Shown here piece by piece: positions 254 through 37,078 of a stretch of 48,398 nucleotides of DNA. The notes beneath the pieces are model-generated. The model had not been told where the DNA came from. It did no database searches and saw only the letters and a list, made by a program, of their open reading frames with translations. How positions within the stretch are numbered: the first letter of the stretch is position 1; each line of letters opens with the position of its first letter. Origin of the DNA: Candidatus Yanofskybacteria bacterium (lineage in GTDB: Bacteria; Patescibacteriota; Minisyncoccia; 2-02-FULL-40-12; GWA2-44-9). The translations under genes and the position numbers were made by a program. The stretch is taken from NCBI GenBank assembly GCA_016181145.1, contig JACOZW010000023.1, positions 1 through 48,398 on the forward strand, read 5' to 3'.

Positions 254-1537
254 TTATTGGATAGCTTCCAGCCCACCCATATATTTTTGCAAAACTTTAG
301 GAATCTTAACTGTCCCCTTCTCGGTCTGATAATTTTCCATAATGGCAATCAGCGTACGACCAGCAAATGCAGTCGCGTCATTCATGTGAACAAATTCGGA
401 CTTATTATCTCTCTTGAACTTAATAGCAAGGCGACGAGATTGAAAATCAGTCATTAAGTCTGAAGTATGAGTCTCGCGATATTTGTTTTGACCAGGCATC
501 CAGGTTTCAATATCGATCTGGCGGGCATCCGGTGCGCCCATATCGCCGCTACAGATCGCCACAACCTGGTATGGCAGTTCCAGATCCTGAATCATATATT
601 CCTGAATCGCGACTATGAAATCCTGTTCTTTGACAGAATCTTCCGGCAAAGTAAAAGATTCCATCTCCAATTTATCGAATTGATGCACCCTAAGCATCCC
701 CTTCATATCTTTGCCGTAAGAACCTGCTTCACGACGAAATGCAGTTGAAAAACCAACATATCTTAAAGGCAGGTTTTCTATTTTTATAAATTCATCCATG
801 TGCATTGAACCGAGAGTGTGTTCGGCACTGCCTATTAGATAGAGGTTGTCACTCGAGATGTGATATCGTTCTTCTTTGGGTTCAAGGCGTCCCATTTTTT
901 GAAATACATCCGGCTTAATAAAAACTGGCGGTAAGACCGGAATAAACGGAGTGTCGGGAACATCCAGCTTTGCCTTTTTTATTATTTTTTTAAGCTGACC
1001 GCTGTCAGTTAAAACAGACAGAGCATATTGCATCAGGGCAAATTCCATCAACGCCAAACCGCCTTTCATATAAACAAATCTCGCTCCTGAGACTTTAGCC
1101 GCCCTCTCGCTATCCAGAATATCCAATTCCTGACCCAACTCCCAGTGCTCTTTTGGCTTAAATGGGAATCCTGATATTTTACCAACTTGCCGGATAACTT
1201 TATTCCCAGACTCATCTACACCAACGGGAGTATCCTCCGAAGGGATATTAGGAACTTTTAACATTATCTCGTGGAACTTCTTTTCAATCTCAGTCAAACC
1301 GCCTTCCAGCTCCTTAAATTTTTCTTTTATTTTCTTTAGCTCCTCAATACCTTCAGGCGACTGCGGACCTTTTGACTTGCTATTTTGTTCAGCCTTCAGT
1401 GATTCGGATGACTCCATTATCTGCCTTCTCTTTTTGTCTATTTCCAATAACTCATCTACATCAACATTGGCCTTCTTATTTTTAACGGCTTCTTTCACAA
1501 TCTCCGGATTATCCCTTATGAATTTAATATCGAGCAT
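254..1537 (-). CDS. serS: seryl-tRNA synthetase
   Basis: 427 aa. N-terminal coiled-coil arm plus class-II motifs FRREAGSYGKDMKGMLRVHQFDKLE and GRTLIAIMENYQ. Confidence 0.95.
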   Translation of the reverse strand: MLDIKFIRDNPEIVKEAVKNKKANVDVDELLEIDKKRRQIMESSESLKAEQNSKSKGPQSPEGIEELKKIKEKFKELEGGLTEIEKKFHEIMLKVPNIPSEDTPVGVDESGNKVIRQVGKISGFPFKPKEHWELGQELDILDSERAAKVSGARFVYMKGGLALMEFALMQYALSVLTDSGQLKKIIKKAKLDVPDTPFIPVLPPVFIKPDVFQKMGRLEPKEERYHISSDNLYLIGSAEHTLGSMHMDEFIKIENLPLRYVGFSTAFRREAGSYGKDMKGMLRVHQFDKLEMESFTLPEDSVKEQDFIVAIQEYMIQDLELPYQVVAICSGDMGAPDARQIDIETWMPGQNKYRETHTSDLMTDFQSRRLAIKFKRDNKSEFVHMNDATAFAGRTLIAIMENYQTEKGTVKIPKVLQKYMGGLEAIQ

Positions 1538-6363: not shown

Positions 6364-8292
6364 TTAATTTCTACTGAAGTACCATTTGAGTACCTCGCTA
6401 GCTACTTTAATCGCCAATCCCTGCTGAGTAGGACTTGCCCCCTCTATCAGGATTGTCATTGCCAGCTCTGGATTTTCATGAGGCGTAAAAACAATTAAAA
6501 AAGAGTTAACTGACCTGCCCTTAACAACTTCGGCAGTTCCTGTTTTTGCTCCGGCAGTAACCGGGAGATCTTTAAGCGGCTGGGCAGTTCCGGATAATAC
6601 GGTCTCTCTCATGGCATTTCTAACCTCATTAATAACGCCTTCAGAAAATGGCAGACTGCCAATTACTTCAGAATTGAATTCAGCCACAGTTTCTTGATCT
6701 CTATTAACAACCCTATTCCCGATTAATGGTTTGTAAAAATTACCACCATTAGCAATAGCCGACACATAACTATTAAGCCACAGGGGCGTAACCAGCAAGT
6801 CGCCCTGGCCTATAGAAATATTATATGTATCACCGAGATACCAAGCCTCGCCTTTTTCCCTGAGCTTCCATTCGGGACTGGGAACGAAACCCTTTTCTTC
6901 ACCCGGCATATCCAAGCCCAAAGCAGAAGCAATGAGCGAAGCATTAAAATACTTTATTAACCTCTCAGCGCCAAGACCATTAATATTGCCAAAGCCTCCG
7001 CCCATCGTAAAAAAATAAATATTGCATGAGTTGGCTATCGCCCGCCTAAGATTAAACGGCCCATACTCAACCCGCCAATTTTTAAAAACATAGGGATTAT
7101 CCTGGTCATAAGGATTAGCAATGGTTAAATCAACGCAGTCCTCAATTGTATCGCCAGGAGTCATTATTTTCTCCTGCAGACCGGCCATACCGACAAGAGG
7201 TTTAATCGTCGAACCGGGGTTATATAAACCGCCGACAACGCGATTAAAAAGTGGCTTAGATTTATTCTCAAATAAACGCCTATAATCGCCCTCGGAAATA
7301 CTGGAGCTAAAGATATTGTTATCGAAACCCGGAAAGCTAACCAGAGCCCTGACCGATCCGTCTCTGGGATCCTGCACTATCGCGGCTGCCCTAGATAAAC
7401 CCGAATCACGCAAAACGGAGAATACTTCATCGTACAGCTTTACCTGAAGATCATGATCGATATTTAAAATAAGGCTATTGCCGGATGTCGGCTCTTTAGT
7501 TATGTGTCCGGCCTCACCGCGGGAGAAGAAAATATTACCATGCACGCCCCGCAGAAATTTTTCATATTGATTTTCGATTCCAAGGCGACCCACCACATCC
7601 GTTGTAAAATAATAATCGTCCCCCAAGTCATCTTTGCTTACCTTACCGGTATAACCTATAATCTGGGAAAATTTAGGGCCATCCAGATACTCCCTCTTTG
7701 TATCCGGTACAACATAAAAACCTTTCGGATCGAGATATTCAATTGCCAGAGCCTGATCCTTAGTTAGCTCAAGATGAACAAAAAAAGTGCTATTAAATTT
7801 CATTTGATCAATAATCTTTTGATGCAATATGTCTGGATTCTGGCCGAGTATCTGAGCAATTTTGATCACATGCCCTCCTAAATCTTCTGAACTATCTTTC
7901 AATTCCCTGGTGATAGCCAATAGATTAAACACCGGTATATTTCTAACCAGAACCAGACCATTGCGATCCAATATGGCTCCACGCGGAGGCGGGAGAGGAA
8001 AATTAGCCGACTTGTTCTGAAAGGCAAGCTTAGAAAAAACATCATGGTCGATGATAGAATTTTTAAAAACAAAAGATAAGATGATCAAAAATACAAGCGA
8101 GAACACAACCATAAAGAGACGAAAGACTAATCCGGAAATCGGTTGTTCGATATCTGAATACTGACTATCTGAATCAAGCAAAGTCTCTTCGGGTGCTACC
8201 CAATCATCACTTTCAACGGATATGCCGTAGTAATTTTTATTTCTTTTTAAGAACATAGGCAAAAATAGCAGAAAAAATACACGACCATACAA
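6364..8292 (-). CDS. mrdA: penicillin-binding protein 2 (elongasome transpeptidase)
   Basis: STIKP (SxxK), SCN (SxN) and KTGTA in the correct order. It lies downstream of mreBCD. The start overlaps the mreD end, so the true start may be the internal Met at about 8256. Confidence 0.85.
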   Translation of the reverse strand: MYGRVFFLLFLPMFLKRNKNYYGISVESDDWVAPEETLLDSDSQYSDIEQPISGLVFRLFMVVFSLVFLIILSFVFKNSIIDHDVFSKLAFQNKSANFPLPPPRGAILDRNGLVLVRNIPVFNLLAITRELKDSSEDLGGHVIKIAQILGQNPDILHQKIIDQMKFNSTFFVHLELTKDQALAIEYLDPKGFYVVPDTKREYLDGPKFSQIIGYTGKVSKDDLGDDYYFTTDVVGRLGIENQYEKFLRGVHGNIFFSRGEAGHITKEPTSGNSLILNIDHDLQVKLYDEVFSVLRDSGLSRAAAIVQDPRDGSVRALVSFPGFDNNIFSSSISEGDYRRLFENKSKPLFNRVVGGLYNPGSTIKPLVGMAGLQEKIMTPGDTIEDCVDLTIANPYDQDNPYVFKNWRVEYGPFNLRRAIANSCNIYFFTMGGGFGNINGLGAERLIKYFNASLIASALGLDMPGEEKGFVPSPEWKLREKGEAWYLGDTYNISIGQGDLLVTPLWLNSYVSAIANGGNFYKPLIGNRVVNRDQETVAEFNSEVIGSLPFSEGVINEVRNAMRETVLSGTAQPLKDLPVTAGAKTGTAEVVKGRSVNSFLIVFTPHENPELAMTILIEGASPTQQGLAIKVASEVLKWYFSRN

Positions 8293-26151: not shown

Positions 26152-26826
26152 TTATTTTATTTTATTTTTTAATAACCGTATTATTTCTTCAATAGTTCCG
26201 CTATCTAATATCTGAACGTCGGTATTTTCTATTAGGCCGTTTATTTTTTGACGCGAGGTTACATAAACACCCTTAATCATGCTCGGCATATCACCCAAAT
26301 CAATTTTAGGACTCATAAATACGACTACTGAGGCAACCTTAAAATCACGGCCCATCTTACTCCTTAGTAATTCGCTCAGGGCATAGGACTTCTGGAGAGA
26401 TTGGGTAATAATTCCCTTCAGAATCACGCCGTCCTGAACCAATTCATCACCATCGAAGCTTACCCTCCCATCCCTGTCTTTAGCAACAATGAGCCAGGTA
26501 CCCGAAGGTCCAACAATCGCGTAATCGACTACTGCATTATTAGGCAGCTTGGGTTTTGATAAAACTCTGAATCCTTTTTCAAGTCTATTCAAATCACTGC
26601 CAAAACTCAACATATCTGCCACAAGCTGTACCTGCACCATTGAGCGCTGGATAACCTCGAATATAATATCAACGATAACAAAAAATATTCCAAGCCATAT
26701 AAATCTATAAAGGGGCGTATCGCCAAACCATGAAACAAGCGGAAAAAACCAATTAGCAACGCCAGCTATTACTAGAAGGATAATTAGAAAAACATGTCCG
26801 AAAATTTTGCTGGTGTATTTAGACAT
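26152..26826 (-). CDS. membrane-anchored NERD-like (nuclease-related) domain protein
   Basis: Two N-terminal TM segments, then DYAIVGPSGTWLIVAKDRDG, which resembles the NERD core. Confidence 0.5.
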   Translation of the reverse strand: MSKYTSKIFGHVFLIILLVIAGVANWFFPLVSWFGDTPLYRFIWLGIFFVIVDIIFEVIQRSMVQVQLVADMLSFGSDLNRLEKGFRVLSKPKLPNNAVVDYAIVGPSGTWLIVAKDRDGRVSFDGDELVQDGVILKGIITQSLQKSYALSELLRSKMGRDFKVASVVVFMSPKIDLGDMPSMIKGVYVTSRQKINGLIENTDVQILDSGTIEEIIRLLKNKIK

Positions 26827-28024: not shown

Positions 28025-29032
28025 TTACAATAATTTCCCTCTCCAGTGAGAATCTATGTAAGAGGCCGCTTCGCTTAACTTGAGTGAGGTGGTGCCATTG
28101 CCGGTACGGATAAAAAAGTCTTCATTCTCTTCAGTCCTTAGATAAGCCGGCCTATCGGCAGGAAGAACATTTACCAGACAAAAATCTTTGCCGTCTTTTT
28201 TTTGCAAAGATAGATCAACAAACTGCCTGAATTCTGGTCCGATCATAGAATGGAAAATGTTGGTAAAATGATTTTGGAAACCATCGGCATTCGATTTAGG
28301 CAGTGACCTGTAATCATTCTCCAGGCCGACAACTTGGCCCGAATCATCAACGCCAATAGCTAAGCGTCCGCCCGCAGAATTAAGAAACGCTGCAATTGTC
28401 TTCATTACCGCCCGCTCCAAACTCTTATTAACTTTATTTAGTTTCATATCCCAACGCAGAGAAGTTTTAAACTCAAGACGCTCATGCTCGCCTCCGCTTA
28501 ACAAACCATTGAATGTATCAGCTGATATTTTATCTGCGTGGGCCACGAGTCCGCCCTTGAGCTGAACTATAAGCTCAGCATACCTCTGTGGTTCTGGAAT
28601 GTGATCCAGAGAAAACTTAGAGTCGCTTTCCTTAAGGTCGATGGTTCCGTATTTAGTAAGTCTGCCTAAGGGACCTTGGCGATAATCAACGGAGTGGATG
28701 AATTTCAGAGGAATTACTGTCTTTTTTCTGAAAATAATACCGCGACCATAAACAATTTTGTCCGGCCGGAACTCGAAATATTCTTTATACCACTGAAAGA
28801 ATATATAAAAAACTAAGCCGGTTTCCAGAATAAAAAGTCCTGCCGCCTCAACTATATGAAAAGATAGAGAACTAGATAACGGCAAGTGCTCATATATTTC
28901 ACCGTAATCAGCCAGAACCGAGGCTAAGAAAAAAACGGCTACTGCCGTCAACTGGAGCACAATAAAGGTCTTAACAATAACAACAGGGCTTTTTTTGACC
29001 ACGAGTTGATTGGTGAAGCCAAATCTATCCAT
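28025..29032 (-). CDS. membrane protein with a bacterial PH (bPH_2) domain and a C-terminal AlbA_2/Schlafen-like domain
   Basis: YRQGPLGRLTKYGTIDL (bPH_2-like). EHERLEFKTSL and AAFLNSAGGRLAIGVDDSGQVVGL (AlbA_2 signature). The start is probably Met 29032; the track start 29068 lies inside the repeat element. Confidence 0.7.
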   Translation of the reverse strand: MDRFGFTNQLVVKKSPVVIVKTFIVLQLTAVAVFFLASVLADYGEIYEHLPLSSSLSFHIVEAAGLFILETGLVFYIFFQWYKEYFEFRPDKIVYGRGIIFRKKTVIPLKFIHSVDYRQGPLGRLTKYGTIDLKESDSKFSLDHIPEPQRYAELIVQLKGGLVAHADKISADTFNGLLSGGEHERLEFKTSLRWDMKLNKVNKSLERAVMKTIAAFLNSAGGRLAIGVDDSGQVVGLENDYRSLPKSNADGFQNHFTNIFHSMIGPEFRQFVDLSLQKKDGKDFCLVNVLPADRPAYLRTEENEDFFIRTGNGTTSLKLSEAASYIDSHWRGKLL

Positions 29033-29143
29033 CCCGTTAGAGATAGTGCTCGCACTCACTATCACCATATGGTGATAGAAATGGTTACATTACCTTAACT
29101 TATAATCTTCCATATTGTCCCGCTAGGGTATCTCTAACGGGAT
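29031..29143. repeat. 113-bp element with 15-bp terminal inverted repeats ATCCCGTTAGAGATA / TATCTCTAACGGGAT
   Basis: It shares the outer 11 nt of its termini with the element at 22488-22560. An inner palindrome CACTATCACCATATGGTGATAG is present. The left terminus overlaps the start codon of the AlbA_2 gene. Confidence 0.8.
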
Positions 29144-30209: not shown

Positions 30210-32705
30210 TTATTTTTTAACTATTGACTCAATGATATCAAATACTTTTTCCGGGGCAAGTTGAGAACGAGAACCGTCTGAATTGCGTGGAGCGCCGCCA
30301 ATTGATGATCCCCCACCCCAGCCAGGTTCAATCTTGTTCAGCTCATAGAGTATGGTTCCCTCTTTAGAAACTGGCCCAACAGGAAAATCACTTACCATAT
30401 CTGATTTTTTGGCAATTGTATAAGCGTAACTGCCATCAAGTTGTTGCTGAAAAGCCACCGCTCTGGTATGGCTGGCTTTATAGAGCAAATCGAAGACAAA
30501 ATCATCCGATTCAGCCATCACCCAACCAGTACCTTCTCTTACAATTTTAAAACTTCTTTTATCTTCTTCCGATTCATATTGAAACTGACCACTAACAAAG
30601 TCATCTAGATTCTTAAGGCACTTCTTGAGCAACTCTTTTAGATCCAATTTAGCGTATTCTTTATTCTTCCTTGAGTACCCTTCTGGTTGCATCACTCCTT
30701 TAAAAAATATTTCGGCAAGTCTGGGATCAAGCGCCGTATATGCCGGGCCATGAGCATCAATACCCCCGATAGATTCAACCAGCATCCTGATTAATGAATC
30801 TTTAATCTTATTCGGATGCTGCAAAAGCCAAATAGATAAAACAGTATCACCATCTATGTCGTTTATATAGACATCAAAGCCCGAAGGGTCAAATCCAAGA
30901 AGCAGGGCGTCTAAAATTTGCTGGCAAGTTGCCCGTGTAATTTGACGGCTTACCCGATCGTGATGATCAAAAGAATATCTTCTTCTTTCTGAATCAGAAT
31001 CAGGTCCCTGAACATAACCATCAAGTGCAATGCTATTATTAGGTAGCTCATCGAAGTTCACAGCTTTCCCTCGCTCAATAATGACATTATCAGCTGGCCG
31101 TTCCTTAACCTCAACGCCATTCGTGCTATTACCGGATATTTCAACAAATTTTTTGCGGGCATATTCTTTGGCTTGATCGGTGCTGGTTATCTCGCCGTCA
31201 AGCTGTAGTTCCAGAATCTCTTTCAAGGTTTGTCCCACCATTGTCCCCGGCTTAAATCCGATTTCCAGTAAATCACGGCCCATAATTAATGGCTGAGGTT
31301 TGGATTTTTCAACTGATAATTCCTCTGCTCTTCTCAAAACATCTTCGGCCTTGTCATAATCCATAATTCCACGACCAGATCCGCGTATATCTGCAGTCGC
31401 AAGATTGGCCAGTTCTTTTATCGTGCCGGGATAAACTCTTTTGGCAAGTCGTCTTATGGCCGAATCTGATGGGTCGGGAGCATTGTGGATAAACATGTGA
31501 CACTCAACTAGGCGGAGGACTCTTTCAATTAATTCTTTTTTTATAAAAAGCATCTCGAGGAATTTTTGGCTAGGTTCAAGACCAGCATCCTCATGGCCAT
31601 AAGAAGTTATTTTGCCGTCTTCTTCTTTTGTGGTAGCCGGCTTACCTAAATCATGACAAACAGCAGCCAATAAAAGTATCTTCTTTTCTTCATCAGATAA
31701 TTTTTGTTCGCCGGCTATATCGACAGCTGAATCTATGACCATTTTAGTATGTGTCCAGACATCACCTTCCGGATGATATTTAGGATTTTGAGGAACACCT
31801 ATAAGTGCTTTCAATTCCGGATGTAATTGATCAAGCACCCCCACCTCTAAAGCCAATTCGAGGCCAATACTTGGCTTAGGAGCCTTCATTAGAAGTTTTA
31901 ACCACTCACCACCGATTCTTTCCGGCGACAATTCTCTTAGATCAAGGGTTCTACATAATTCTTTTGTATCTTCATCAATACTAAAACCAAATCGAGCTGC
32001 AAATTGCACCGCCCTTAAGACACGCAATGAATCCTCTGCAAAGGTTTCCTTATCAGTCGCCCTCAAAGTTTTTCTTTTGATGTCTTCTATCCCGCCGTAA
32101 AAATCGAGAATCTCACCGGTTAAAGGATCGAGTGCCAATGCATTTATGGTGAGGTCCCTTCTTCGAGCCGCTTCTTTTACAGACATATATGGATCTCCTG
32201 TTACATCAAAACCTTTATGGCCTTTTCCGGTTTTTGAATCACGCCTTGGGATGGAAATATCAAGCATAGTCGACATTTTTGCCGTATTTAATTTGAATAC
32301 CTTAAAAGCTTCGCCGGCAATTTCCAATTTACCTAATTTATCTAAAATATTTTTTAAAATATCCTGATCAATACCATATACTTCAATATCGATATCTTTG
32401 GGCTTTAAGTTATGGCCGAATTTAGATAAAGCTGCATCCCGAGCAAAACCGCCGACAACCAAGGCCAAACCGCCCCTCTCCTTAACGGCTTCGCAAACTT
32501 TAATAGCCAATTCAATTTCTTCCTTTTCTAAAGGATCTTCTATTCTTTCACGAATAGCATAGAAGCTATCAGTATTCTCTATCAACGCCTGCTCGTGAAG
32601 ACGGTTTCGTTCTTCTTTCCCGGCTTCATCTGATAACGCTTCGAATTTTTCTCTTTCCCGTAGGTCTTCTGGTGTAGTTGGATTAAATTTATCTAAATTT
32701 CCCAT
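30210..32705 (-). CDS. cca: CCA-adding tRNA nucleotidyltransferase with an HD domain and a roughly 290-aa C-terminal extension
   Basis: LVVGGFARD...DIDIEV, RRDLTINALA and EDSLRVLRAVQFAARF (class-II NTase head/neck). HPEGDVWTHT...CHDLGKP (HD domain). The C-terminal part carries FDHHD, DIDGDT, GIDAHG and GWGGGS. Confidence 0.8.
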   Translation of the reverse strand: MGNLDKFNPTTPEDLREREKFEALSDEAGKEERNRLHEQALIENTDSFYAIRERIEDPLEKEEIELAIKVCEAVKERGGLALVVGGFARDAALSKFGHNLKPKDIDIEVYGIDQDILKNILDKLGKLEIAGEAFKVFKLNTAKMSTMLDISIPRRDSKTGKGHKGFDVTGDPYMSVKEAARRRDLTINALALDPLTGEILDFYGGIEDIKRKTLRATDKETFAEDSLRVLRAVQFAARFGFSIDEDTKELCRTLDLRELSPERIGGEWLKLLMKAPKPSIGLELALEVGVLDQLHPELKALIGVPQNPKYHPEGDVWTHTKMVIDSAVDIAGEQKLSDEEKKILLLAAVCHDLGKPATTKEEDGKITSYGHEDAGLEPSQKFLEMLFIKKELIERVLRLVECHMFIHNAPDPSDSAIRRLAKRVYPGTIKELANLATADIRGSGRGIMDYDKAEDVLRRAEELSVEKSKPQPLIMGRDLLEIGFKPGTMVGQTLKEILELQLDGEITSTDQAKEYARKKFVEISGNSTNGVEVKERPADNVIIERGKAVNFDELPNNSIALDGYVQGPDSDSERRRYSFDHHDRVSRQITRATCQQILDALLLGFDPSGFDVYINDIDGDTVLSIWLLQHPNKIKDSLIRMLVESIGGIDAHGPAYTALDPRLAEIFFKGVMQPEGYSRKNKEYAKLDLKELLKKCLKNLDDFVSGQFQYESEEDKRSFKIVREGTGWVMAESDDFVFDLLYKASHTRAVAFQQQLDGSYAYTIAKKSDMVSDFPVGPVSKEGTILYELNKIEPGWGGGSSIGGAPRNSDGSRSQLAPEKVFDIIESIVKK

Positions 32706-32729: not shown

Positions 32730-32763
32730 TCAAAAACAAAAGGCCGAACTATGACAGTTCGGC
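32730..32763 (-). terminator. terminator of the GC-rich island operon
   Basis: Minus strand: GCCGAAC-TGTCATA-GTTCGGC followed by CTTTTGTTTTT. The stop codon of the last ORF lies in the loop. Confidence 0.65.
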
Positions 32764-32907
32764 TCGAATATCCTTTCGGGAACTTTCTTTCTCCTGGCCA
32801 CGGCGGTATTTCCCGCCCTTGGTCGGTTGATGGGCTCCGCCACCTGCTCGCTTGATTGCCGGCAGACGAACTTTCAGGTACATCGACTTTTGCTTTTTCT
32901 TTTTCAT
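32749..32907 (-). CDS. very basic 52-aa protein (MKKKKQKSMYLKVRLPAIKRAGGG...)
   Basis: GGAGGAACGATC directly precedes ATG 32907. The longer track ORF start at 32958 lacks an SD. Confidence 0.5.
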   Translation of the reverse strand: MKKKKQKSMYLKVRLPAIKRAGGGAHQPTKGGKYRRGQEKESSRKDIRAELS

Positions 32908-32933
32908 GATCGTTCCTCCATTATAACAAAAGA

Positions 32934-33290
32934 TTAAGAATACTCGATAGAGATCCAATCACGGGTTGAGGTAAGGTAGAAAACCCTTTTAATTCCTGCG
33001 GCTTCCAATAATTTCTGACATTTCTGACATGGCTTTGAGGGTACGAATTTACCATTTCTGACCCTCATACCAGCAACATAAATTGTTGATCCCTTCAGGC
33101 GATTACGATTCGCCCTGCGAATGGCTAAAGCCTCGGCACACTCACCAAGACCATCAACACCGGCATGGTTCCAGCCCCAGCTGAATATTCTGCCGGTACG
33201 ATCCGTAATTACCGCCGCAACGCGAACATTGCATGATGAACGATCAATCAGGTCAATAGCTAAATCCATCGGCGAACATCTCGTATTCAA
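32934..33290 (-). CDS. cytidine/deoxycytidylate-deaminase-fold zinc enzyme (118 aa)
   Basis: GECAEALAI (C/HAE) and PCQKCQKLL (PCxxC) 32 residues apart. TTG start 6 nt after AGGAGG. Confidence 0.7.
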   Translation of the reverse strand: MNTRCSPMDLAIDLIDRSSCNVRVAAVITDRTGRIFSWGWNHAGVDGLGECAEALAIRRANRNRLKGSTIYVAGMRVRNGKFVPSKPCQKCQKLLEAAGIKRVFYLTSTRDWISIEYS

Positions 33291-33300
33291 GGGGCTCCTC

Positions 33301-33534
33301 CTATGCTACATCCCAACCAGTCAGACGGTAACCGAGCTGTGGTTCAACAAGGTCATAATCGCCGCTAGCGACTACCTTGTTAAATTCTCGATTTGCCACT
33401 CGCCGAAAGCGACGACGAGCACCTTTCTTCATGGGCCCGAGATTGAGCCTCACTACTCGATGGGCCATCTCACGAGCATTCCGATCGGTCACCATTTTTT
33501 CCCGCATCTTACCCTCATCCTTATTAATTAGCAC
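33301..33534 (-). CDS. hypothetical basic protein (77 aa; may start at Met 33507)
   Basis: ORF in the operon frame, with a 7-nt overlap with the upstream ORF. Confidence 0.45.
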   Translation of the reverse strand: MLINKDEGKMREKMVTDRNAREMAHRVVRLNLGPMKKGARRRFRRVANREFNKVVASGDYDLVEPQLGYRLTGWDVA

Positions 33535-33785
33535 TTAGCATATAATACAGCAAAAAAAATCCCAGTCAAGATTATTGGGAGAAAATCAGTGGGCGCTCCG
33601 GCTACATGACTTATTGGGCATGCTTTCGCAATGCCCTCATGCATATTGCGCCAGATATTCCACAATCCCCTCCCACCAAAAACTTCTCGCTTGAAAAATC
33701 TTTGATAGAAGGCCGAATCAAGGTGATTCGGCAGCTCTGACATCCCCAGAGCAAATGAGAAGTGTTCGTATTTTGAGCCCAACAC
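33528..33785 (-). CDS. hypothetical protein with a C-terminal TM segment (85 aa, GTG start)
   Basis: GGGAG 7 nt before the GTG, and a hydrophobic C-terminus FLPIILTGIFFAVLY. Confidence 0.4.
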   Translation of the reverse strand: MLGSKYEHFSFALGMSELPNHLDSAFYQRFFKREVFGGRGLWNIWRNMHEGIAKACPISHVAGAPTDFLPIILTGIFFAVLYAKC

Positions 33786-33800
33786 ACAAGGCTCCCTTGC

Positions 33801-33986
33801 TTACTTCGCTACCGGCCACTCGACTTCGACGCCGAGTTCCACGGCCGCCAGCAAAGCAAGTTCCCGCTTCTCCGCGTCGGTGAGCTCCTTGAGCTCGATG
33901 TTGAACGCCTTCAACCCCGTCTCACCCTTGTAGTCCTGATAACCGAAGAATTTCACCAGAACCTTCATCTGACCCATCTTTTCCAT
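33801..33986 (-). CDS. hypothetical 61-aa protein
   Basis: AGGAG 6 nt before the ATG, and protein-like composition. Confidence 0.5.
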   Translation of the reverse strand: MEKMGQMKVLVKFFGYQDYKGETGLKAFNIELKELTDAEKRELALLAAVELGVEVEWPVAK

Positions 33987-34036
33987 GACTGTCTCCTCTT
34001 ACTGCAAAAGCAGTATAATTGGAAAGAACTATTCCT

Positions 34037-34101
34037 CCCGCCAAAATCTTCAATATTTTTTATTATGATATATCATAATAAGTTTTGAAAATTTTGGCGG
34101 G
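34037..34101. repeat. GC-clamped AT-rich palindrome in an island spacer
   Basis: CCCGCCAAAAT (34037-34047) pairs with ATTTTGGCGGG (34091-34101). The inner palindrome is TTATTATGATATATCATAATAA. Confidence 0.75.
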
Positions 34102-34108
34102 AACCCAA

Positions 34109-34492
34109 TCACGAGGATTGGGGCTGCCGAGTAAAACTCGGCTCTTTAGCGCTCGTGGGAGCGAGCGCTTCGGCCATGGCTTTGCCCATCTGCGTTTTGG
34201 CGCGCAGATGGAGAAGATAGTCCTGAGCGGCTTTACGCTCAGACTGACGCTTCTCAAGAAGTGTAACGGTACCGACGTATGAAAACGTCTTGCCGTCACC
34301 TTTCTTGGCTGCCTCCTTCTGAATCAGATGGGCATGACGCCCACACAAGATCCAGCCGGTCAGGTCGTCAACTGTCACGGGCTTTCCGATCGCCAATCGG
34401 ATTGCCGTAACAGCCGGTACCTTCGCTTTTTCGGGAGCCATCTTGGCCTTGCATCCCGAAAAAGTACACGCTAATACAATCTGTTCACTCAT
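34109..34492 (-). CDS. hypothetical 127-aa protein with a possible Cys/His cluster
   Basis: AGGAGG 6 nt before the ATG. C9, C14, C50 and H53 are spaced like a zinc site. Confidence 0.55.
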   Translation of the reverse strand: MSEQIVLACTFSGCKAKMAPEKAKVPAVTAIRLAIGKPVTVDDLTGWILCGRHAHLIQKEAAKKGDGKTFSYVGTVTLLEKRQSERKAAQDYLLHLRAKTQMGKAMAEALAPTSAKEPSFTRQPQSS

Positions 34493-34833
34493 GCATACCT
34501 CCTAAAAGAAAAAACTGTAAAAAAACAAAGAACACGGGTAGTGTGGTGCGGAGTCTCTTGGCCCGAAGCCTCATGCCTGTTCTCCCCGCTCGAGTCACCC
34601 ATTCCGCTGTCTTATTTCGACTGCGGTAGTCTAAGTGCCGCCATCCGCTCTTATGAGCGAGATACTCTATGCTTGCGACGGTCTTCAGCCAACCACACCC
34701 CCATCAGAATCTTCATATACCGACAGTTAGATTAAAAACTCTGACGGGGTGGGGAGAATTGCCTGTTCTACTCTCCCCCTATGCCTGTTTATTTTTCGTC
34801 GGACTCAGCAGGCTCCGACTAGGGGTGTGCCTT

Positions 34834-35076
34834 CTATCGAAGAAGGCTGGCGAACCACTGCGGCTCGATGACGCAAATGCCGTTCTCTGCAAGAATGGAT
34901 TTCATATCCACCAGCAGGTCGGCATAAGCGCGCTGAGCCTGATCACGGTCCATCCCTTTCTCCCGAAGGAGAAAAAAGAATTCCTGGACGGTGACGCAGT
35001 GATCAACCAACTCCCGATGGGTCCGCATGCGGCCATCAGGAGCGGGCACCCACGTGAACAGCGGTTTGCTGCTCAT
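34834..35076 (-). CDS. hypothetical 80-aa protein
   Basis: Protein-like composition but no SD. Preferred over the overlapping 213-aa plus-strand ORF. Confidence 0.35.
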   Translation of the reverse strand: MSSKPLFTWVPAPDGRMRTHRELVDHCVTVQEFFFLLREKGMDRDQAQRAYADLLVDMKSILAENGICVIEPQWFASLLR

Positions 35077-35825
35077 ATAGAACGAAAGGATGGGGAAAAT
35101 GTGGATGAGTCACCGACTTGTCGGAGCGGTCCCTCCGGTCCAGACTCAGGTTTAGTCGGTGTGTTGCAGCGTCCCGCCCGCTCACATCACATTCTCCCCA
35201 CCAGAAACTTTATAAAAAATCTCTGGTGGGGGGCCGAGCTGATTAGGCTCGGCTTTAGTTTTTCTATTCTGCAAAGAACTCGAGGGGGTGTGACTTGGGC
35301 TGGATCGTAGCTCGGAGTAGCTTCTCCGGCTTCAGACTTTCGCGATCCATTTTGGTTCACCTTCTTTTTTTCGCTACGTATAGCGCTTCAGTTATTCCCC
35401 CTCCCACGGACTGTGCCGTGGGAGGGATGCTGAAGAGGAAGGTTCCGCACAACGCTGGCTTGCTAAGGGCCAGGGTCCCGTATGCGGTATTAAGTCGACC
35501 CTATCACACCCCACAGTTTTAACTGACAGGTTAATCAGCTAAAAATGTGTGGCGTGATAAGTACAATTTCCCCCTTTCTAGGCCGGCATGCACGCTGACG
35601 ACACAAGACGAAACTTATTGTAACGCCTTGTCCCTCCTGTACCGTCCGCACATTCCGGTCTGGAAAGAGGCCTCAATAACCAATTTTGGCTGGATTCTTG
35701 AGGTTCCTCTTAATCGGCAGAACTAAGATTGATTGGATGGGAGCCGCGATAATTATCTAGACGGCTTAAACCCGATACCTGAACCAATCCCTGCCCAAAA
35801 TTAACCTTACTTAACTTTCCGGCTT
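35077..35825 (-). other. approximately 740-nt ORF-free, hairpin-dense 5' leader of the island operon
   Basis: It lies between the minus-strand promoter (35826-35853) and the first ORF. Stops occur in all six frames. Strong stems include 35399-35409/35416-35426 (11 bp), 35196-35205/35222-35231 (10 bp), 35233-35239/35247-35253, and the long-range pair GGGGTGTGA (35285-35293) with TCACACCCC (35504-35512). Confidence 0.45.
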
Positions 35826-35853
35826 ATTATACACAAATGAATTATTTTGTCAA
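35826..35853 (-). promoter_or_regulatory. near-consensus sigma70 promoter of the island operon
   Basis: Minus strand: TTGACA (35853-35848), 16-nt spacer, TATAAT (35831-35826). The -35 box is one arm of the palindrome ATTTTGTCAAT-ACCC-ATTGACAAAAT. Confidence 0.55.
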
Positions 35854-36013
35854 TACCCATTGACAAAATTTTGTCTCTAAATAGCCATATTGTGGCTTAA
35901 ATACTGGGTTTTTTGACTATAGAGATGTCATCAAAAATTGACTAAAAACACAAAAATTATATAATTTTAAAATTTTTATTAAAAAAATTAAAAATTAAAT
36001 ATGTCAGCAAGCC

Positions 36014-36042
36014 TTGACAGAAATATAAGAATAGATTATAAT
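36014..36042 (+). promoter_or_regulatory. consensus sigma70 promoter diverging from the island operon
   Basis: TTGACA (36014-36019), 17-nt spacer, TATAAT (36037-36042). A second match, TTGACT-16-TATAAT, is at 35938-35965. Confidence 0.55.
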
Positions 36043-36048
36043 ACACAA

Positions 36049-36333
36049 AGCTGGGATGTCTCAATCGAGGATCCCGGCATCGTGGGGCAAGCACGCCCCA
36101 AGAAGCCAGGAGGCACAAGTGTCGAAATCTCACTCTGAAAAGTCCGCTGATAAGGACAAGATAGAGAAGATTAACGATACACAAACCCCCTCCTGCAAGA
36201 ATGGAGGGTGAAATGGGAGCTGGCTAAATTTACCAGAGTTCGGCCGACGATCGAAAAACACAGGGAAAAGTAAAAACAGAACAATGTCACAATGCCATTG
36301 AAACCGCCGTCGCACATGCGATGGCTTTGTTTT
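36049..36333 (+). ncRNA. approximately 285-nt transcript unit (sRNA and/or mRNA for a 51-aa ORF)
   Basis: It is bounded by the consensus promoter and by the hairpin GCCGTCGCA-CA-TGCGATGGC plus TTTGTTTT (36306-36333). Internal stems are TGGGGC/GCCCCA and CCCTCC/GGAGGG. Confidence 0.4.
36056..36211 (+). CDS. possible 51-aa hydrophilic ORF ending ...SCKNGG
   Basis: ATG lies about 7 nt after the predicted transcription start and no SD is present. It is below the ORF-track cutoff and coding status is unproven. Confidence 0.25.
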   Translation: MSQSRIPASWGKHAPRSQEAQVSKSHSEKSADKDKIEKINDTQTPSCKNGG

Positions 36334-37078
36334 ATCTCCCTAAACTATTCCAGAGGAGTTCAAAAACCGACCTAAACGAATCTGCCATTTCTTTATGCTC
36401 GATAACTACACCAGAAATTTTGCCCTTGAGAGCCATAACTGCTATTTTATCACCGAAAATTGTTATATCTGAGCCTAGAGACAATTTATCTTTAGATACA
36501 TATTTTGACTCGCGCAAAAACTCCTTATCGTCTCCGCTAAGGAAGGGTCCCTTACTAGAAGTATATATGAGCTTAGACGGTATTCTTTTTTGGGCTCTTT
36601 TTGAGGAATAGTCAGAAGAAAAATCAGGGAATAATTCCATCACGCTATCGAAATCAGATATGCCATAAATAAAATCAGACTTTGTTTTTAAAAATTCACT
36701 CTGGATCTTAAGAATCCCCTCTTTACCCTCAAAGAACCTGACTTGAGGCTTTGAATCAGAAAGATTAAAAATATTTGTAAGTTCCGGCAAAAGTTTATGA
36801 AGTTCTTCTTTTTTCTGTTCGAGTTCACCCCTTTGCCTTTCAATCATAGACTCTAAGTGTTCTGGTGATTCGGCTATAAATAGTTGCTTTTTACCCCTTG
36901 TTTGAGTACTGGCAAGACCCATTTTTTTAAGCGACTCAATCTGAACATAAGTTGTCGGACGATTAACACCGGCCTTAGCAGATATTTCAAGAGCAGTAGC
37001 CGGACCAAGCTCAAGCATAGCAAAATATACTTTGGCTTCATTCTCGGAAAGACCCAGGTTTTTTAATTGATTCAGCAT
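36332..37078 (-). CDS. TrmB-family transcriptional regulator
   Basis: N-terminal winged HTH: LGLSENEAKVYFAMLELGPATALEISAKAGVNRPTTYVQIESLKKMGL. Confidence 0.8.
   Translation of the reverse strand: MLNQLKNLGLSENEAKVYFAMLELGPATALEISAKAGVNRPTTYVQIESLKKMGLASTQTRGKKQLFIAESPEHLESMIERQRGELEQKKEELHKLLPELTNIFNLSDSKPQVRFFEGKEGILKIQSEFLKTKSDFIYGISDFDSVMELFPDFSSDYSSKRAQKRIPSKLIYTSSKGPFLSGDDKEFLRESKYVSKDKLSLGSDITIFGDKIAVMALKGKISGVVIEHKEMADSFRSVFELLWNSLGR

Follow-up and report, generated by a model that had tools for sequence, protein, structure and literature searches.

A structured RNA heads a chromosomal locus conserved beside a TrmB-type regulator gene in Parcubacteria

The minus-strand transcription unit (Unit A) of a GC-rich island at 32730-36335 begins with a structured RNA of about 545 nt in three domains, which is supported by covariation and has not been described before; Rfam has no family match for it, either in the window (the whole 48,398-nt stretch of DNA analysed) or in 12 related loci. 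The locus is chromosomal, is conserved in a Parcubacteria clade close to Yanofskybacteria, and lies beside a gene for a TrmB-type regulator in at least eight related lineages. We give roughly an even chance to the reading that the whole is a repressor-controlled chromosomal operon dominated by RNA structure, with a cis-acting leader, which recombines between lineages. Features are listed in Table 1.

Table 1. Features of the island and of the adjoining regulator gene, in window coordinates
Feature	Position	Strand	Description
Unit A promoter	35853-35826	-	TTGACA-16-TATAAT; 12/12 consensus match
Operator-like inverted repeat	35848-35865	-	TGTCAAT-GGGT-ATTGACA; overlaps Unit A promoter (element 35826-35865)
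Unit A RNA, 5' domain	35714-35798	-	Long hairpin, invariant apex AAGCCGUCUAGAUAAUUAUCGCGGC
Unit A RNA, central domain	35570-35676	-	Long irregular hairpin GGCCUCUUUCC...CCUAGAAAGGGG
Unit A RNA, 3' domain	35283-35512	-	About 230 nt, multi-branched; closing long-range helix GGGGUGUGAUAGGG / CCCAAGUCACACCCC
Junction element J1	35190-35262	-	GC hairpin, then perfect 16-bp hairpin CCCCACCAGAGAUUUU/AAGUUUCUGGUGGGG; z = -8.3
80-aa protein gene	34834-35076	-	Family KPLFxW...FFFxLR...EPxWFA; without SD, preceded by GUUCUAU; GC3 0.68
Conserved element	34775-34825	-	Right behind 80-aa stop codon; hairpin GUCGGA/UCCGAC
Junction hairpin J2	34699-34749	-	CCCCGUCAGAGUUUUU.../...GAAGAUUCUGAUGGGG
GUUCUUU	34533	-	After J2 and a structured 5' UTR, ahead of Zn-protein gene
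127-aa Zn-binding protein gene	34109-34492	-	C9, C14, C50, H53 invariant; basic C-terminal helix
Junction hairpin J3	34035-34103	-	About 19+9 bp, UCCCGCCAAAAUUUUCAA.../...UUGAAGAUUUUGGCGGGA; z = -8.0; inverted repeat I1; then GUUCUUU (34029)
61-aa protein gene	33801-33986	-	Strong SD; GC3 0.77, GC2 0.26; lineage-specific cassette
Nominal 85-aa ORF	33528-33785	-	Holds J4 and a promoter-like site
Junction double hairpin J4	33669-33731	-	Within nominal 85-aa ORF
Weaker promoter-like site	33569-33542	-	10/12; inside nominal 85-aa ORF
68-aa ORF	33301-33507	-	77 aa from GTG at 33534; Arg-rich; called from ATG as 68 aa in L001
118-aa CDA-fold deaminase gene	32934-33290	-	CAE...PCxxC; Pfam dCMP_cyt_deam_1 1.6e-14; PHROG dCMP deaminase 1.4e-20
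52-aa Lys/Arg-rich protein gene	32749-32907	-	GGxHxxxKGGKxRRxxEKEKxRREIKAE; last cistron
Operon intrinsic terminator	32743-32763	-	37 nt ahead of cca start codon
Half-sites and third promoter-like site	35916-35965		Extra TGACA half-sites; promoter-like site at 35938-35965 (+); beside AT-rich spacer
AT-rich spacer	35940-36010	.	11% GC; between divergent promoters
Inverted repeat	36002-36019	+	TGTCA-N-TGACA; includes -35 box of Unit B promoter
Unit B promoter	36014-36042	+	TTGACA-17-TATAAT; 12/12 consensus match
Unit B transcript	36043-36331	+	About 290 nt, terminated; two 5' hairpins
Unit B 30-aa ORF	36119-36211	+	SD-preceded
Unit B SD-sequestering hairpin	about 36186-36208	+	CCCUCC/GGAGGG
Unit B mini-ORF	36213-36227	+	4 codons, MGAG; behind SD-sequestering hairpin
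Unit B terminator	36306-36325	+	
TrmB-type HTH regulator gene	36332-37078	-	248 aa; Pfam TrmB 2.9e-16; candidate repressor

The RNA lies in a 750-nt ORF-poor stretch from 35826 to 35077, where a sequence-only reading had proposed an ORF-free leader; the stretch has all three stop codons in every frame and folds with z = -7.6 relative to shuffles. Covariation evidence was drawn from 6-8 lineages. The 5' domain, folded with RNAalifold from 6 lineages, has 22 pairs, 5 of them with compensatory changes; the central domain, likewise from 6 lineages, has 29 pairs, of which 4 are compensatory, and an apex of variable length, with insertions of 0 to about 150 nt. The 3' domain is the best supported, with 41 pairs that are 94.5% paired, against 27-42% when the alignment is slid. 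Double (compensatory) changes occur in 14 of these pairs, and 0 of 500 shuffles equal the domain. A covariance model, R1, scores 184 bits at the 3' domain of the window and finds one full-length copy per lineage. In lineage L013 an additional copy precedes the 80-aa gene, and L011 has a new match ahead of a 178-aa ORF; the 161 kb searched contain no others. All R1 matches stand upstream of an ORF.

The composition jump reported in the sequence-only reading is real. The island has 48.1% G+C compared with 40.5% in the rest of the window (a recount of row 34141-34200 again gives 37/60), and its core at 33001-35700 reaches 50.6%; any other 2.7-kb stretch of the window stays at or below 44.4% (mean 40.7, s.d. 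1.4). Across 7 lineages, GC3 is 0.55-0.77 in island genes and 0.30-0.41 in the flanks, including GroEL and atpD. The sharp compositional boundaries are the sole support for an assembly chimera, or for a region that is no biological unit, and to either we attach virtually no probability. Two independent Logan assemblies from other sequencing runs are 100% identical over 35355-32701 and continue through the junction into cca, both junctions are seen again in diverged relatives, and the whole architecture recurs in eight diverged lineages that come from separate studies. The chimera is rejected because the independent assemblies agree and the diverged lineages share the architecture.

The backbone around the locus is collinear, running from atpD and rsmE up to TrmB on one flank and through AlbA_2, NERD and Gmad2 on the other; the left-hand neighbour is constant in all lineages and the right-hand neighbour varies. 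The TrmB-type gene adjoins the locus in 8/8 lineages, in either orientation, and has a host-like GC3 of 0.32 and a discordant tree of its own. Relatives were gathered through the island's own proteins, and the sample is therefore one of occupied sites. Between the window and its relative L010, the RNA is more than 90% conserved and the ORFs are 79-85% identical in nucleotides. Cistron content and order vary from lineage to lineage, with new cassettes inserted at junction hairpins. The Zn-protein tree conflicts with those of the flanking genes and TrmB, and the 80-aa protein tree is also discordant with the flanks; in L006, L007 and L011 the Zn protein has 83-86% identity, compared with 22-51% for flanking proteins. 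Some horizontal exchange is thus real, because of this conflict and the differing cistrons, and to that extent the earlier suggestion of horizontal acquisition stands. Recent acquisition does not, since the composition is shared by all relatives found, these having been found through island proteins.

The discordant trees, the shuffled cassettes, the varying right-hand neighbour and a GC3 that departs widely from the host's in every lineage could also be read as a mobile or selfish element (a minimal integrated satellite, a prophage immunity or early region, or a cassette array) that passes horizontally between Parcubacteria and inserts beside TrmB with its own composition. The arrangement of an operator with divergent promoters, small ORFs and hairpins between the cistrons also resembles phage early regions. 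We consider such an element distinctly unlikely here. Within about 8 kb of the island there are no genes for integrase, replication or capsid functions, and no direct repeat flanks it, in agreement with the sequence-only reading; packaging and transfer genes are likewise absent. Searches of 50,697 phage records and 72,556 plasmids gave 0 matches, IMG/VR holds no relative of the island, PADLOC has no match for it, and the deaminase is the only island protein with a match in PHROGs. The absence of phage, plasmid and IMG/VR relatives and the fixed chromosomal place in eight lineages, with a constant left-hand neighbour and collinear backbone, leave the proposed prophage or satellite remnant unsupported. 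Over such divergence the composition would be expected to drift towards that of the host unless selection maintained it, and constraint at the RNA level is indicated by the folding z-scores and by synonymous sites that are conserved beyond the encoded amino acids.

Signs of this constraint extend along the transcript. A sliding scan gives folding z-scores of -2.5 to -7 over 35700-33526, ORF interiors included, and about 0 in the flanks. A like pattern is seen in L007; the Zn gene of L003, taken by itself, shows no unusual degree of structure. Identity at third positions ranges from 48 to 86% for island genes and from 25 to 50% for the flanks, and for the 80-aa gene of L006 and L013 it reaches 86%, exceeding the amino-acid identity of 74%. 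Because folding z-scores are strongly negative within ORFs and synonymous sites are conserved, RNA-level selection explains the GC anomaly better than foreign origin, and seems to be the main source of the odd composition. The high synonymous identity and discordant trees could instead stem from recent horizontal transfer.

All seven minus-strand ORFs reported earlier are present, with two amendments: the 77-aa ORF shortens to 68 aa, and the 85-aa ORF is probably a structured spacer rather than a gene, because J4 lies inside it, its GC is flat by codon position, and no relatives were found anywhere. Whether the 68-aa ORF is a gene is uncertain; it is a singleton with no family matches in searches that included Pfam and PHROGs. 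The hallmark cistron is that of the 127-aa Zn protein, which occurs in 13/13 loci and has 15 close homologues, 89 clusters by profile search, and an AF2 model with pLDDT 83 that, like its sequence, has no match in PDB or BFVD. The 52-aa basic protein is found in 11 loci and 109 clusters, whose named sources are Parcubacteria MAGs, and has no Pfam or PDB match. These two cistrons are present in nearly every locus. The 80-aa protein is frequent among loci, with 8 homologues that share 70-84% identity and further, more divergent ones in L006, L007 and L013; the remaining cassettes are lineage-specific. The 61-aa protein has no homologue in the other loci compared, L010 included, and its 90% cluster has 4 further members on other contigs. 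The small form of the deaminase is restricted to the window and L010, and OGN07950.1 of Candidatus Yanofskybacteria is among the members of its 90% cluster. The deaminase gene has a GC3 of 0.42.

Perfect hairpins of 16-20 bp, with z = -4.8 to -8.3, stand between the cistrons and are found in every locus; the J1-type family sits between cistrons in all of them. The counterpart of J3 in L010 is a 70-nt repeat flanking the Zn gene, and the stretch 34718-34493 is conserved with L011. The element behind the 80-aa gene has 92-97% nucleotide identity to L007 and L013, always directly after the 80-aa homologue. Its hairpin loop GCCUG can pair with a downstream CAGGC, giving a candidate pseudoknot closed by CCCCUA/UAGGGG; all pairs form in 4 lineages, with 1 compensatory pair, and the signal is not separable from shuffles. 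In L028 a type III hammerhead whose catalytic core is intact (CUGAUGAG...CGAAAC, GUC site; 33 bits, E = 3e-4) lies upstream of the 80-aa gene and is followed by GUUCUUU, the motif that follows the 3' domain elsewhere. The 3' domain, the compact and possibly pseudoknotted element, or both might take the place of the hammerhead as new self-cleaving ribozymes that cut the polycistronic RNA. We regard this as very unlikely: with a cut-off as loose as E <= 10 the window matches none of the known ribozyme models, the hammerhead comes from one short contig and scores below the Rfam gathering threshold, and the pseudoknot has its single compensatory pair.

The consensus promoters, the terminators of both units and the AT-rich tract were all confirmed (Table 1). 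The divergent promoters of Units A and B, both of the sigma-70 consensus type, are each overlapped by an inverted repeat of the same form, TGTCA-N8-10-TGACA. TGTCA-N8-9-TGACA lies over the Unit A -35 box in 8/8 lineages, the Unit B promoter and its repeat are kept in 8 lineages, and the L010 spacer is nearly identical to that of the window. Adjacency makes the TrmB-type protein a candidate for binding these operators. Unit B folds with z = -5.0. Its promoter and terminator are as described in the sequence-only reading, but it is not purely non-coding, since it bears the SD-preceded 30-aa ORF and the mini-ORF; a mini-ORF of 3-4 codons follows the same SD-sequestering hairpin in 8/8 lineages. 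The earlier idea of a compact accessory system equipped with a regulatory RNA comes close to our conclusion and is supported in part.

In a repressor-controlled operon of this kind, the TrmB-like protein, or possibly the Zn protein, would bind the inverted repeats, and the bound repressor would hold both strong promoters off until a signal comes. The 3' domain would be a cis-acting sensor or protein-binding leader and would gate the translation or the stability of the ORF that follows. In some lineages its closing helix stops 20-25 nt short of start codons without Shine-Dalgarno sequences; in the window and L010 the gap to the next ORF is about 200 and 330 nt, so a platform next to the start codon suits some lineages only. 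The long intercistronic hairpins may be RNase III-type processing and stabilising sites, whose cleavage would yield stable monocistronic pieces. Selection for RNA structure along the entire transcript, rather than foreign origin, would produce the high GC, and homologous recombination at repeated junctions and conserved flanks would shuffle cassettes and move alleles among lineages.

Domain subsets of the Unit A RNA differ between lineages, which is more typical of modular cis elements. In L011 an ORF parts the 3' domain from the 5' domain, in L013 the 3' domain is duplicated as the leader of a second ORF, and in the sense direction there is no terminator or obvious 3' end between the RNA and the ORFs. 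These observations argue against an alternative that we judge unlikely, namely that the RNA is a stable, abundant non-coding RNA that forms a ribonucleoprotein with the Zn and Lys/Arg-rich mini-proteins, the ORFs merely sharing its promoter. Such a trans-acting role would be consistent with a large, multi-domain RNA of very highly conserved sequence behind a consensus promoter, and with co-inherited small proteins of nucleic-acid-binding character (a Zn knuckle plus basic helix, and the K/R-rich 52-aa peptide). The palindrome UCUAGA in the invariant apical loop may also permit loop-loop dimerisation. The trans-acting alternative likens the RNA to OLE, ROOL and GOLLD, as a stable non-coding RNA in its own right.

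The segment from 32730 to 36335 has a G+C content of 48.1%, against 40.5% in the rest of the window. Its core (33001-35700) reaches 50.6%, and every other 2.7-kb stretch of the window is at or below 44.4%. The sequence-only reading had described this GC-rich island as a pair of divergent transcription units, Unit A on the minus strand and Unit B on the plus strand, and its main observations hold. Row 34141-34200 does contain 37 G or C in 60 nucleotides, both promoters match TTGACA-N16/17-TATAAT at every position, the spacer between the units (35940-36010) is very AT-rich at 11% GC, and the minus-strand leader runs from 35826 down to 35077 with no credible ORF. All three stop codons are present in each frame of this leader, which rules out a recoded gene or an alternative genetic code. 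The 750-nt ORF-poor stretch folds at -299 kcal/mol, with z = -7.6 relative to dinucleotide shuffles. We rejected a replication origin at the AT-rich tract, as the window has no GC-skew inflection and no DnaA box was seen on reading the sequence. Feature coordinates are collected in the table.

Features of the GC-rich island, with a repeat module of related loci (prefixes name the contig)
Feature	Position	Strand	Remarks
Unit A promoter	35853-35826	-	12/12 match
5' hairpin	35798-35714	-	apex of 25 nt invariant; compensatory changes in 5/22 pairs
Central hairpin	35676-35570	-	base CCUCUUUCC/GGAAAGGGG; compensatory changes in 4/29 pairs
3' domain	35512-35283	-	multi-branched, long-range closing helix
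Junction hairpin J1	35262-35190	-	
80-aa gene	34834-35076	-	
Junction hairpin J2	34749-34699	-	
Zn protein gene (127 aa)	34109-34492	-	
Junction hairpin J3	34103-34035	-	
61-aa ORF	33801-33986		
Junction hairpin J4	33731-33669	-	
85-aa ORF	33528-33785		
68-aa ORF	33301-33507		
Deaminase gene	32934-33290		
52-aa gene	32749-32907		
Intrinsic terminator	32763-32743	-	
Unit B promoter	36014-36042	+	12/12 match
Unit B	36043-36331	+	fold z = -5.0
Intrinsic terminator	36306-36325	+	
~36-nt module	L007:9040-9125; L013:2005-2090; L011:6290-6335, 7910-7945; L024:125-160, 1155-1190		inverted in L013

The abrupt change in composition had raised the possibility of a chimeric join. Over 35355-34024 and 35113-32701 the window is matched at 100% identity by two Logan assemblies of other sequencing runs, the second running on through the entire cca gene at the edge of the island, and both island junctions recur in diverged relatives. 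An assembly chimera is therefore close to inconceivable. Relatives were found through the island's own proteins, by collecting contigs with homologues of the Zn protein and the 80-aa protein, which gave 28 loci. The Zn protein itself has 15 close homologues. Complete loci occur in eight lineages (the window, its nearest relative L010, L003, L006, L007, L011, L013 and L017), and partial ones in L023, L024, L027 and L028. The complete loci share one order: a TrmB-type gene, a gene-poor gap of 1.1-2.6 kb, the homologue of the 127-aa Zn protein and, slightly beyond, a basic ORF of 47-60 aa. All eight gaps contain two divergent consensus promoters about 130-160 nt apart.

The chromosomal backbone of the window is collinear with, for example, that of L003. 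The TrmB-type gene is the left neighbour in all lineages, in either orientation, and the right neighbour varies by lineage between cca, an AlbA_2 gene, an ABC transporter, and a 302-aa gene that has genes for a TadA-like deaminase and a tRNA-binding protein behind it. Within about 8 kb in the window lie cca, an AlbA_2/bPH_2 protein, a NERD protein and Gmad2 on one side, and TrmB, an apolipoprotein-like protein, RsmE and AtpD on the other. None of these is an integrase, replication or capsid gene, and a repeat search found no flanking direct repeats, as had been noted from the sequence. The suggestion of a prophage or satellite remnant is not borne out by Pfam and PHROGs searches of the island and its neighbours, by the repeat search, or by searches of phage, plasmid and IMG/VR collections, in which the island has no DNA or protein match. 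The TrmB-type protein matches PF01978 at 2.9e-16 over residues 5-71, its N-terminal winged helix; its C-terminal half matches no sugar-binding domain model, with NCBIfam scores far under the cut-offs.

Several features of the surroundings deserve mention in their own right. The cca gene (30210-32705, minus strand) encodes 831 aa, with PolyA_pol, RNA-binding and HD domains ending near residue 512 and a C-terminal part of about 320 residues that has no Pfam match; the L010 version has 764 aa. Genes for a bPH_2 and Schlafen/AlbA_2 protein (28025-29068) and a NERD-domain protein (26152-26826), both on the minus strand, lie a few kb from the island, and may form a small defence-like neighbourhood. 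In L003 and L006 the AlbA_2 gene adjoins the island or is one gene off. Near the start of the L010 contig, a gene of the bAvd family (accessory variability determinant; L010:204-599, minus strand) hints at a diversity-generating retroelement. Two locus-bearing metagenome assemblies (L016 and L017) bear the label "Candidatus Saccharibacteria", which looks doubtful: those relatives of the 52-aa protein and of the deaminase that have names come from Candidatus Yanofskybacteria and Taylorbacteria, which are Parcubacteria.

The first ~545 nt of the Unit A transcript are more than 90% identical between the window and L010, against just 79-85% nucleotide identity in the ORFs, and the differences cluster in stem-loops that have been replaced or resized. 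Three domains are definable within this RNA: a 5' hairpin, a central hairpin and a 3' domain. In an alignment of eight lineages, 94.5% of the cells in the 41 pairs of the 3' domain can pair, and sliding the partners by 1-3 columns lowers this to 27-42%; both sides have changed in 14 of the 41, and none of 500 shuffles reached the observed values. The 3' domain thus has compensatory pairs beyond those of the controls, and the 5' and central hairpins add further pairs, with each fold drawing on 6-8 lineages. The apex of the central hairpin ranges from almost nothing in L017 to an insertion of about 150 nt in L023. The invariant apex of the 5' hairpin carries a UCUAGA palindrome in its loop (about 35760-35745), through which the RNA could dimerise by loop-loop contact.

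A covariance model of the 3' domain found one full-length copy per lineage, a second, diverged copy before the 80-aa gene of L013 (71 bits) and a new copy before a 178-aa ORF in L011 (39 bits, E about 1e-8), with nothing further in 161 kb. The 14 hits come from nine distinct lineages, L013 having two copies, and each has an ORF downstream of it on its own strand. The 3' domain is therefore always the leader of some ORF, the arrangement of a cis-regulatory leader. Domain subsets differ by lineage: L003 has no 3' domain, and L007, L013 and L024 have a different 5' domain. Neither a terminator nor an anti-SD alternative is evident in the leader as a switching platform, and one alternative, in which GGUGUGAUAGG pairs with a segment further upstream, is restricted to the window and L010. 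Rfam 15 gives no match at gathering thresholds in the entire window or 12 related loci, and at E <= 10 the window has chance-level miRNA-type matches only, on an AT-rich hairpin. ARAGORN and Rfam likewise gave no match to a tRNA, tmRNA, RNase P, 6S, SRP, group I or II intron or known ribozyme. On the opposite strand (34669-35310, plus), a public assembly (L002, 46-687) annotates a 213-aa ORF as a gene. This ORF overlaps the structured RNA and the 80-aa gene in antisense, and is almost certainly an artefact that the GC-rich RNA region has produced.

Downstream of the leader, the cistrons are parted by perfect hairpins of 16-20 bp belonging to one family, (U)CCCACCAAAxUUUU...AAGAUUUUGGUGGGA. Often a short GC hairpin stands before them, and GUUCUUU, a U/A-rich tract and a Shine-Dalgarno (SD) sequence come after. 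Folding z-scores of J1-J4 lie between -4.8 and -8.3. Such elements are present in every related locus, and sometimes flank the Zn gene as 100% identical repeats. GUUCUUU occurs three times in the sense strand of the island, each time beside a structured element and twice directly before a cistron, and six times in the remaining 45 kb of that strand. Right after the 80-aa stop codon is a 50-nt element (34775-34825) with 92-97% identity in lineages whose proteins are about 35% identical. The loop of its hairpin can pair downstream, and all pairs form in four lineages, one of them compensatory. Four sequences are too few, and these too much alike, for the pseudoknot to be distinguished from shuffles and, with one compensatory pair only, it remains a candidate.

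Unit B comprises two 5' hairpins, a poorly conserved ORF of 30-42 aa with an SD in front, a CCUCC/GGAGG hairpin, a mini-ORF and the terminator. The CCUCC/GGAGG hairpin is invariant and sequesters an SD, and a mini-ORF of 3-4 codons is present in 8/8 lineages. We rejected antisense pairing between Units A and B: in eight lineages the best duplex energies are no better than with shuffled Unit B, and whole-length duplexfold was uninformative. Some relatives contain a further module of about 36 nt, a hairpin GGUCAUACGACC followed by CUGCUCCGCUAYGCGGGUUGC, which the window lacks. Its copies form tandem pairs, are found in either orientation and vary in their place within the loci; the module may be a small mobile repeat or serve as a motif for protein binding. 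A candidate type III hammerhead is present at L028:70-136, with the complete core CUGAUGAG...CGAAAC, its stems and a GUC cleavage site. With 33.2 bits (E = 3e-4) it falls short of the Rfam gathering score of 48.5 bits. The candidate lies upstream of the 80-aa homologue, just before the GUUCUUU motif; the Rfam search at E <= 10 found no hammerhead in the window. That some of the modules are new self-cleaving ribozymes, which would be compatible with the other readings of the locus, is in our estimate a long shot.

The proteins encoded by Unit A are small. In the Zn protein C9, C14, C50 and H53 are invariant and the C-terminal helix is basic. Its AlphaFold (AF2) model is a confident one, with a pLDDT of 83, and gave no Foldseek match at E <= 0.001 in PDB or BFVD; PDB has no sequence match either. 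A profile search widens the family to 89 clusters, with no Pfam domain and no informative names. The 52-aa protein is Lys/Arg-rich, carries the motif GGxHxxxKGGKxRRxxEKEKxRREIKAE, and has 109 clusters from Parcubacteria metagenomes. The 80-aa protein is conserved in nine loci, and its predicted structure (pLDDT 61) is too poor for a structure search. The 61-aa ORF has a strong coding signature (GC3 0.77, GC2 0.26), and its 90% cluster has four other members, on other contigs. The 68/77-aa ORF is a singleton. The 85-aa ORF is probably not a gene, since it is a singleton, has flat GC by codon position and encloses J4. The deaminase is a small CDA-fold enzyme (PF00383 at 1.6e-14, with CAE and PCQKC readable), and this small form is confined to the window and L010. 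PADLOC and NCBIfam models give partial, sub-threshold matches to the deaminase domain only, and we therefore rejected a known anti-phage defence system. A rival reading, which we rate as unlikely, is a stable trans-acting RNP in which the RNA is a scaffold for the Zn and basic proteins.

Cistron content and order vary between loci. Compared with L010, the window has an insertion of about 735 nt (61-aa ORF, spacer and 68-aa ORF) exactly after J3, and an extra 80-aa cassette after the RNA. The order is RNA-80-Zn in L007, RNA-Zn-RNA'-80 in L013, where RNA' is the second copy, and Zn-80-52 in L027. In the window, the nominal 85-aa ORF contains a promoter-like site (TTGACT-16-TATTAT, 10/12; 33542-33569, minus strand), downstream of which are the 68-aa ORF, the deaminase and the 52-aa gene. 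These last three cistrons have folding z-scores near zero and lower GC3, and may be a separate transcription unit.

We compared the island with its flanks for the source of the high GC. Across seven lineages, GC3 is 0.55-0.77 in island genes and 0.30-0.41 in flanking genes including GroEL and AtpD, with a window background of 0.39 +/- 0.05; the low values of GroEL and AtpD mean that high expression alone fails to explain the island. Folding z-scores in sliding 150-nt segments stay near 0 in the flanks, cca and TrmB among them, and are mostly between -2.5 and -7 over 35700-33526, including inside the 80-aa, Zn and 61-aa ORFs. The pattern is alike in L007 and only partly so in L003. Identity at third positions, taken over codons whose four-fold-degenerate family is conserved, is 48-86% in island genes and 25-50% in the flanks. 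In the 80-aa gene of L006 and L013 this value even exceeds amino-acid identity (86% against 74%). The Zn-protein tree groups the window with L010 (89%) and L006 with L007 and L011 (83-86%), in conflict with the flanks, where the same pairs share 22-51%, and with the TrmB tree, which pairs the window with L006, groups L010 with L003 and L011, and pairs L007 with L013. Our reading is that the whole transcript is under an RNA-level constraint that keeps GC high, and that alleles and cassettes are also exchanged between lineages by recombination. A rival reading, that the locus is a mobile or selfish element without a recombinase of its own, we consider very unlikely.

Both -35 boxes form half of an inverted repeat, TGTCA-N8-10-TGACA, in 8/8 lineages, and more half-sites lie in the spacer between the promoters. 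As judged from the sequence, this arrangement is typical of control by a dimeric repressor at both promoters. The adjacent TrmB-type HTH protein is the obvious candidate by virtue of its position. The reading we favour, at roughly even confidence, is that of an operon of the chromosome under the control of a repressor. The long transcript would open with a structured leader that acts in cis, and whose 3' domain in particular may gate the ORF behind it. The transcript would then be cut and stabilized at the long intercistronic hairpins, probably by RNase III. A more radical alternative is a new RNA-centred module, in which a transcript of about 2-3 kb is structurally selected throughout, coding sequence included, and the RNA has a life of its own, while the module, which has no recombinase of its own, spreads among Parcubacteria and reshuffles its cassettes. 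That life might consist of self-processing by undescribed ribozymes, of joining the Zn and basic mini-proteins in an RNA-protein particle, or of being exported or packaged. We hold this alternative to be quite unlikely.

CPR bacteria such as Parcubacteria have tiny genomes and, to our knowledge, almost none of their RNAs or regulators have been characterized by experiment. The locus adds a new, well-delimited structured RNA of more than 500 nt, supported by compensatory mutations and lying outside Rfam, from these little-studied bacteria. The RNA is tied to three uncharacterized mini-protein families, one with more than 100 sequence clusters across Parcubacteria. "Undescribed" here refers to absence from Rfam 15, Pfam, NCBIfam, PHROGs and PADLOC, for RNA from Rfam 15 only, and says nothing of the literature. 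GC3, folding z-scores and synonymous sites suggest that a "GC island" can come from RNA-level selection reaching into coding sequence, and a region of this kind could mislead scans that look for horizontal transfer by composition. The spurious 213-aa antisense gene is a similar caution for annotation by gene callers. The promoter pair with its clear operator, the candidate regulator, RNase III sites and pseudoknot, and the candidate hammerhead of a relative are all testable parts, and could open RNA biology in Parcubacteria, possibly including a new ribozyme or riboswitch class.

Comparison with known systems places the locus between several of them. Hammerhead-associated neighbourhoods resemble L028, whose candidate has structured RNA on one side and a small ORF on the other, and differ from the window, which has no hammerhead and a different conserved domain upstream of the equivalent ORF. 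Integron cassette arrays and CALINs share with the locus small, mostly promoterless same-strand ORFs with similar hairpin-forming repeats between them, cassette content and order that vary in close relatives, and new cassettes exactly at a junction. The locus, however, has only 3-7 cistrons with the same core genes recurring. No recombinase lies within about 8 kb of the island, and attC cores (RYYYAAC/GTTRRRY) are absent from the junction hairpins, which read CCCACCAAA.../...UUUGGUGGG; we rejected membership on these two grounds. In size and conservation the RNA resembles the "ornate" large non-coding RNAs (OLE, GOLLD, ROOL, HEARO and raiA). These too are GC-rich structured RNAs of more than 500 nt in AT-rich genomes, with several domains showing compensatory changes, peripheral stems of variable length, linked small uncharacterized proteins and a narrow clade. 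The locus RNA, in contrast, matches none of their Rfam models, comes from a CPR bacterium and is the 5' part of a polycistronic transcript, with domain subsets that vary and a 3' domain duplicated as a leader.

Riboswitches and leaders of the ribosomal-protein type share with the locus a conserved multi-branch domain with a long-range closing helix directly upstream of ORFs, invariant unpaired nucleotides and, in several lineages, a start codon near the 3' strand of the closing helix. Unlike them, the locus RNA measures about 230 nt in a single domain and 545 nt overall, shows no evident terminator or SD-sequestering alternative and, in the window, has its 3' domain 200 nt from the next ORF. 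For phage early and immunity regions, the reference systems are the lambda PL/PR operators and the T7 early mRNA with its RNase III sites. The locus differs from them in having no phage genes nearby and a chromosomal position that is fixed in eight lineages. It is like them in its divergent consensus promoters under repeated palindromic operators, the adjoining HTH regulator, and the consecutive small ORFs with long perfect hairpins between cistrons. The nearest analogy for how the locus would work is a processed operon of the phage-early type with a giant mRNA leader attached.
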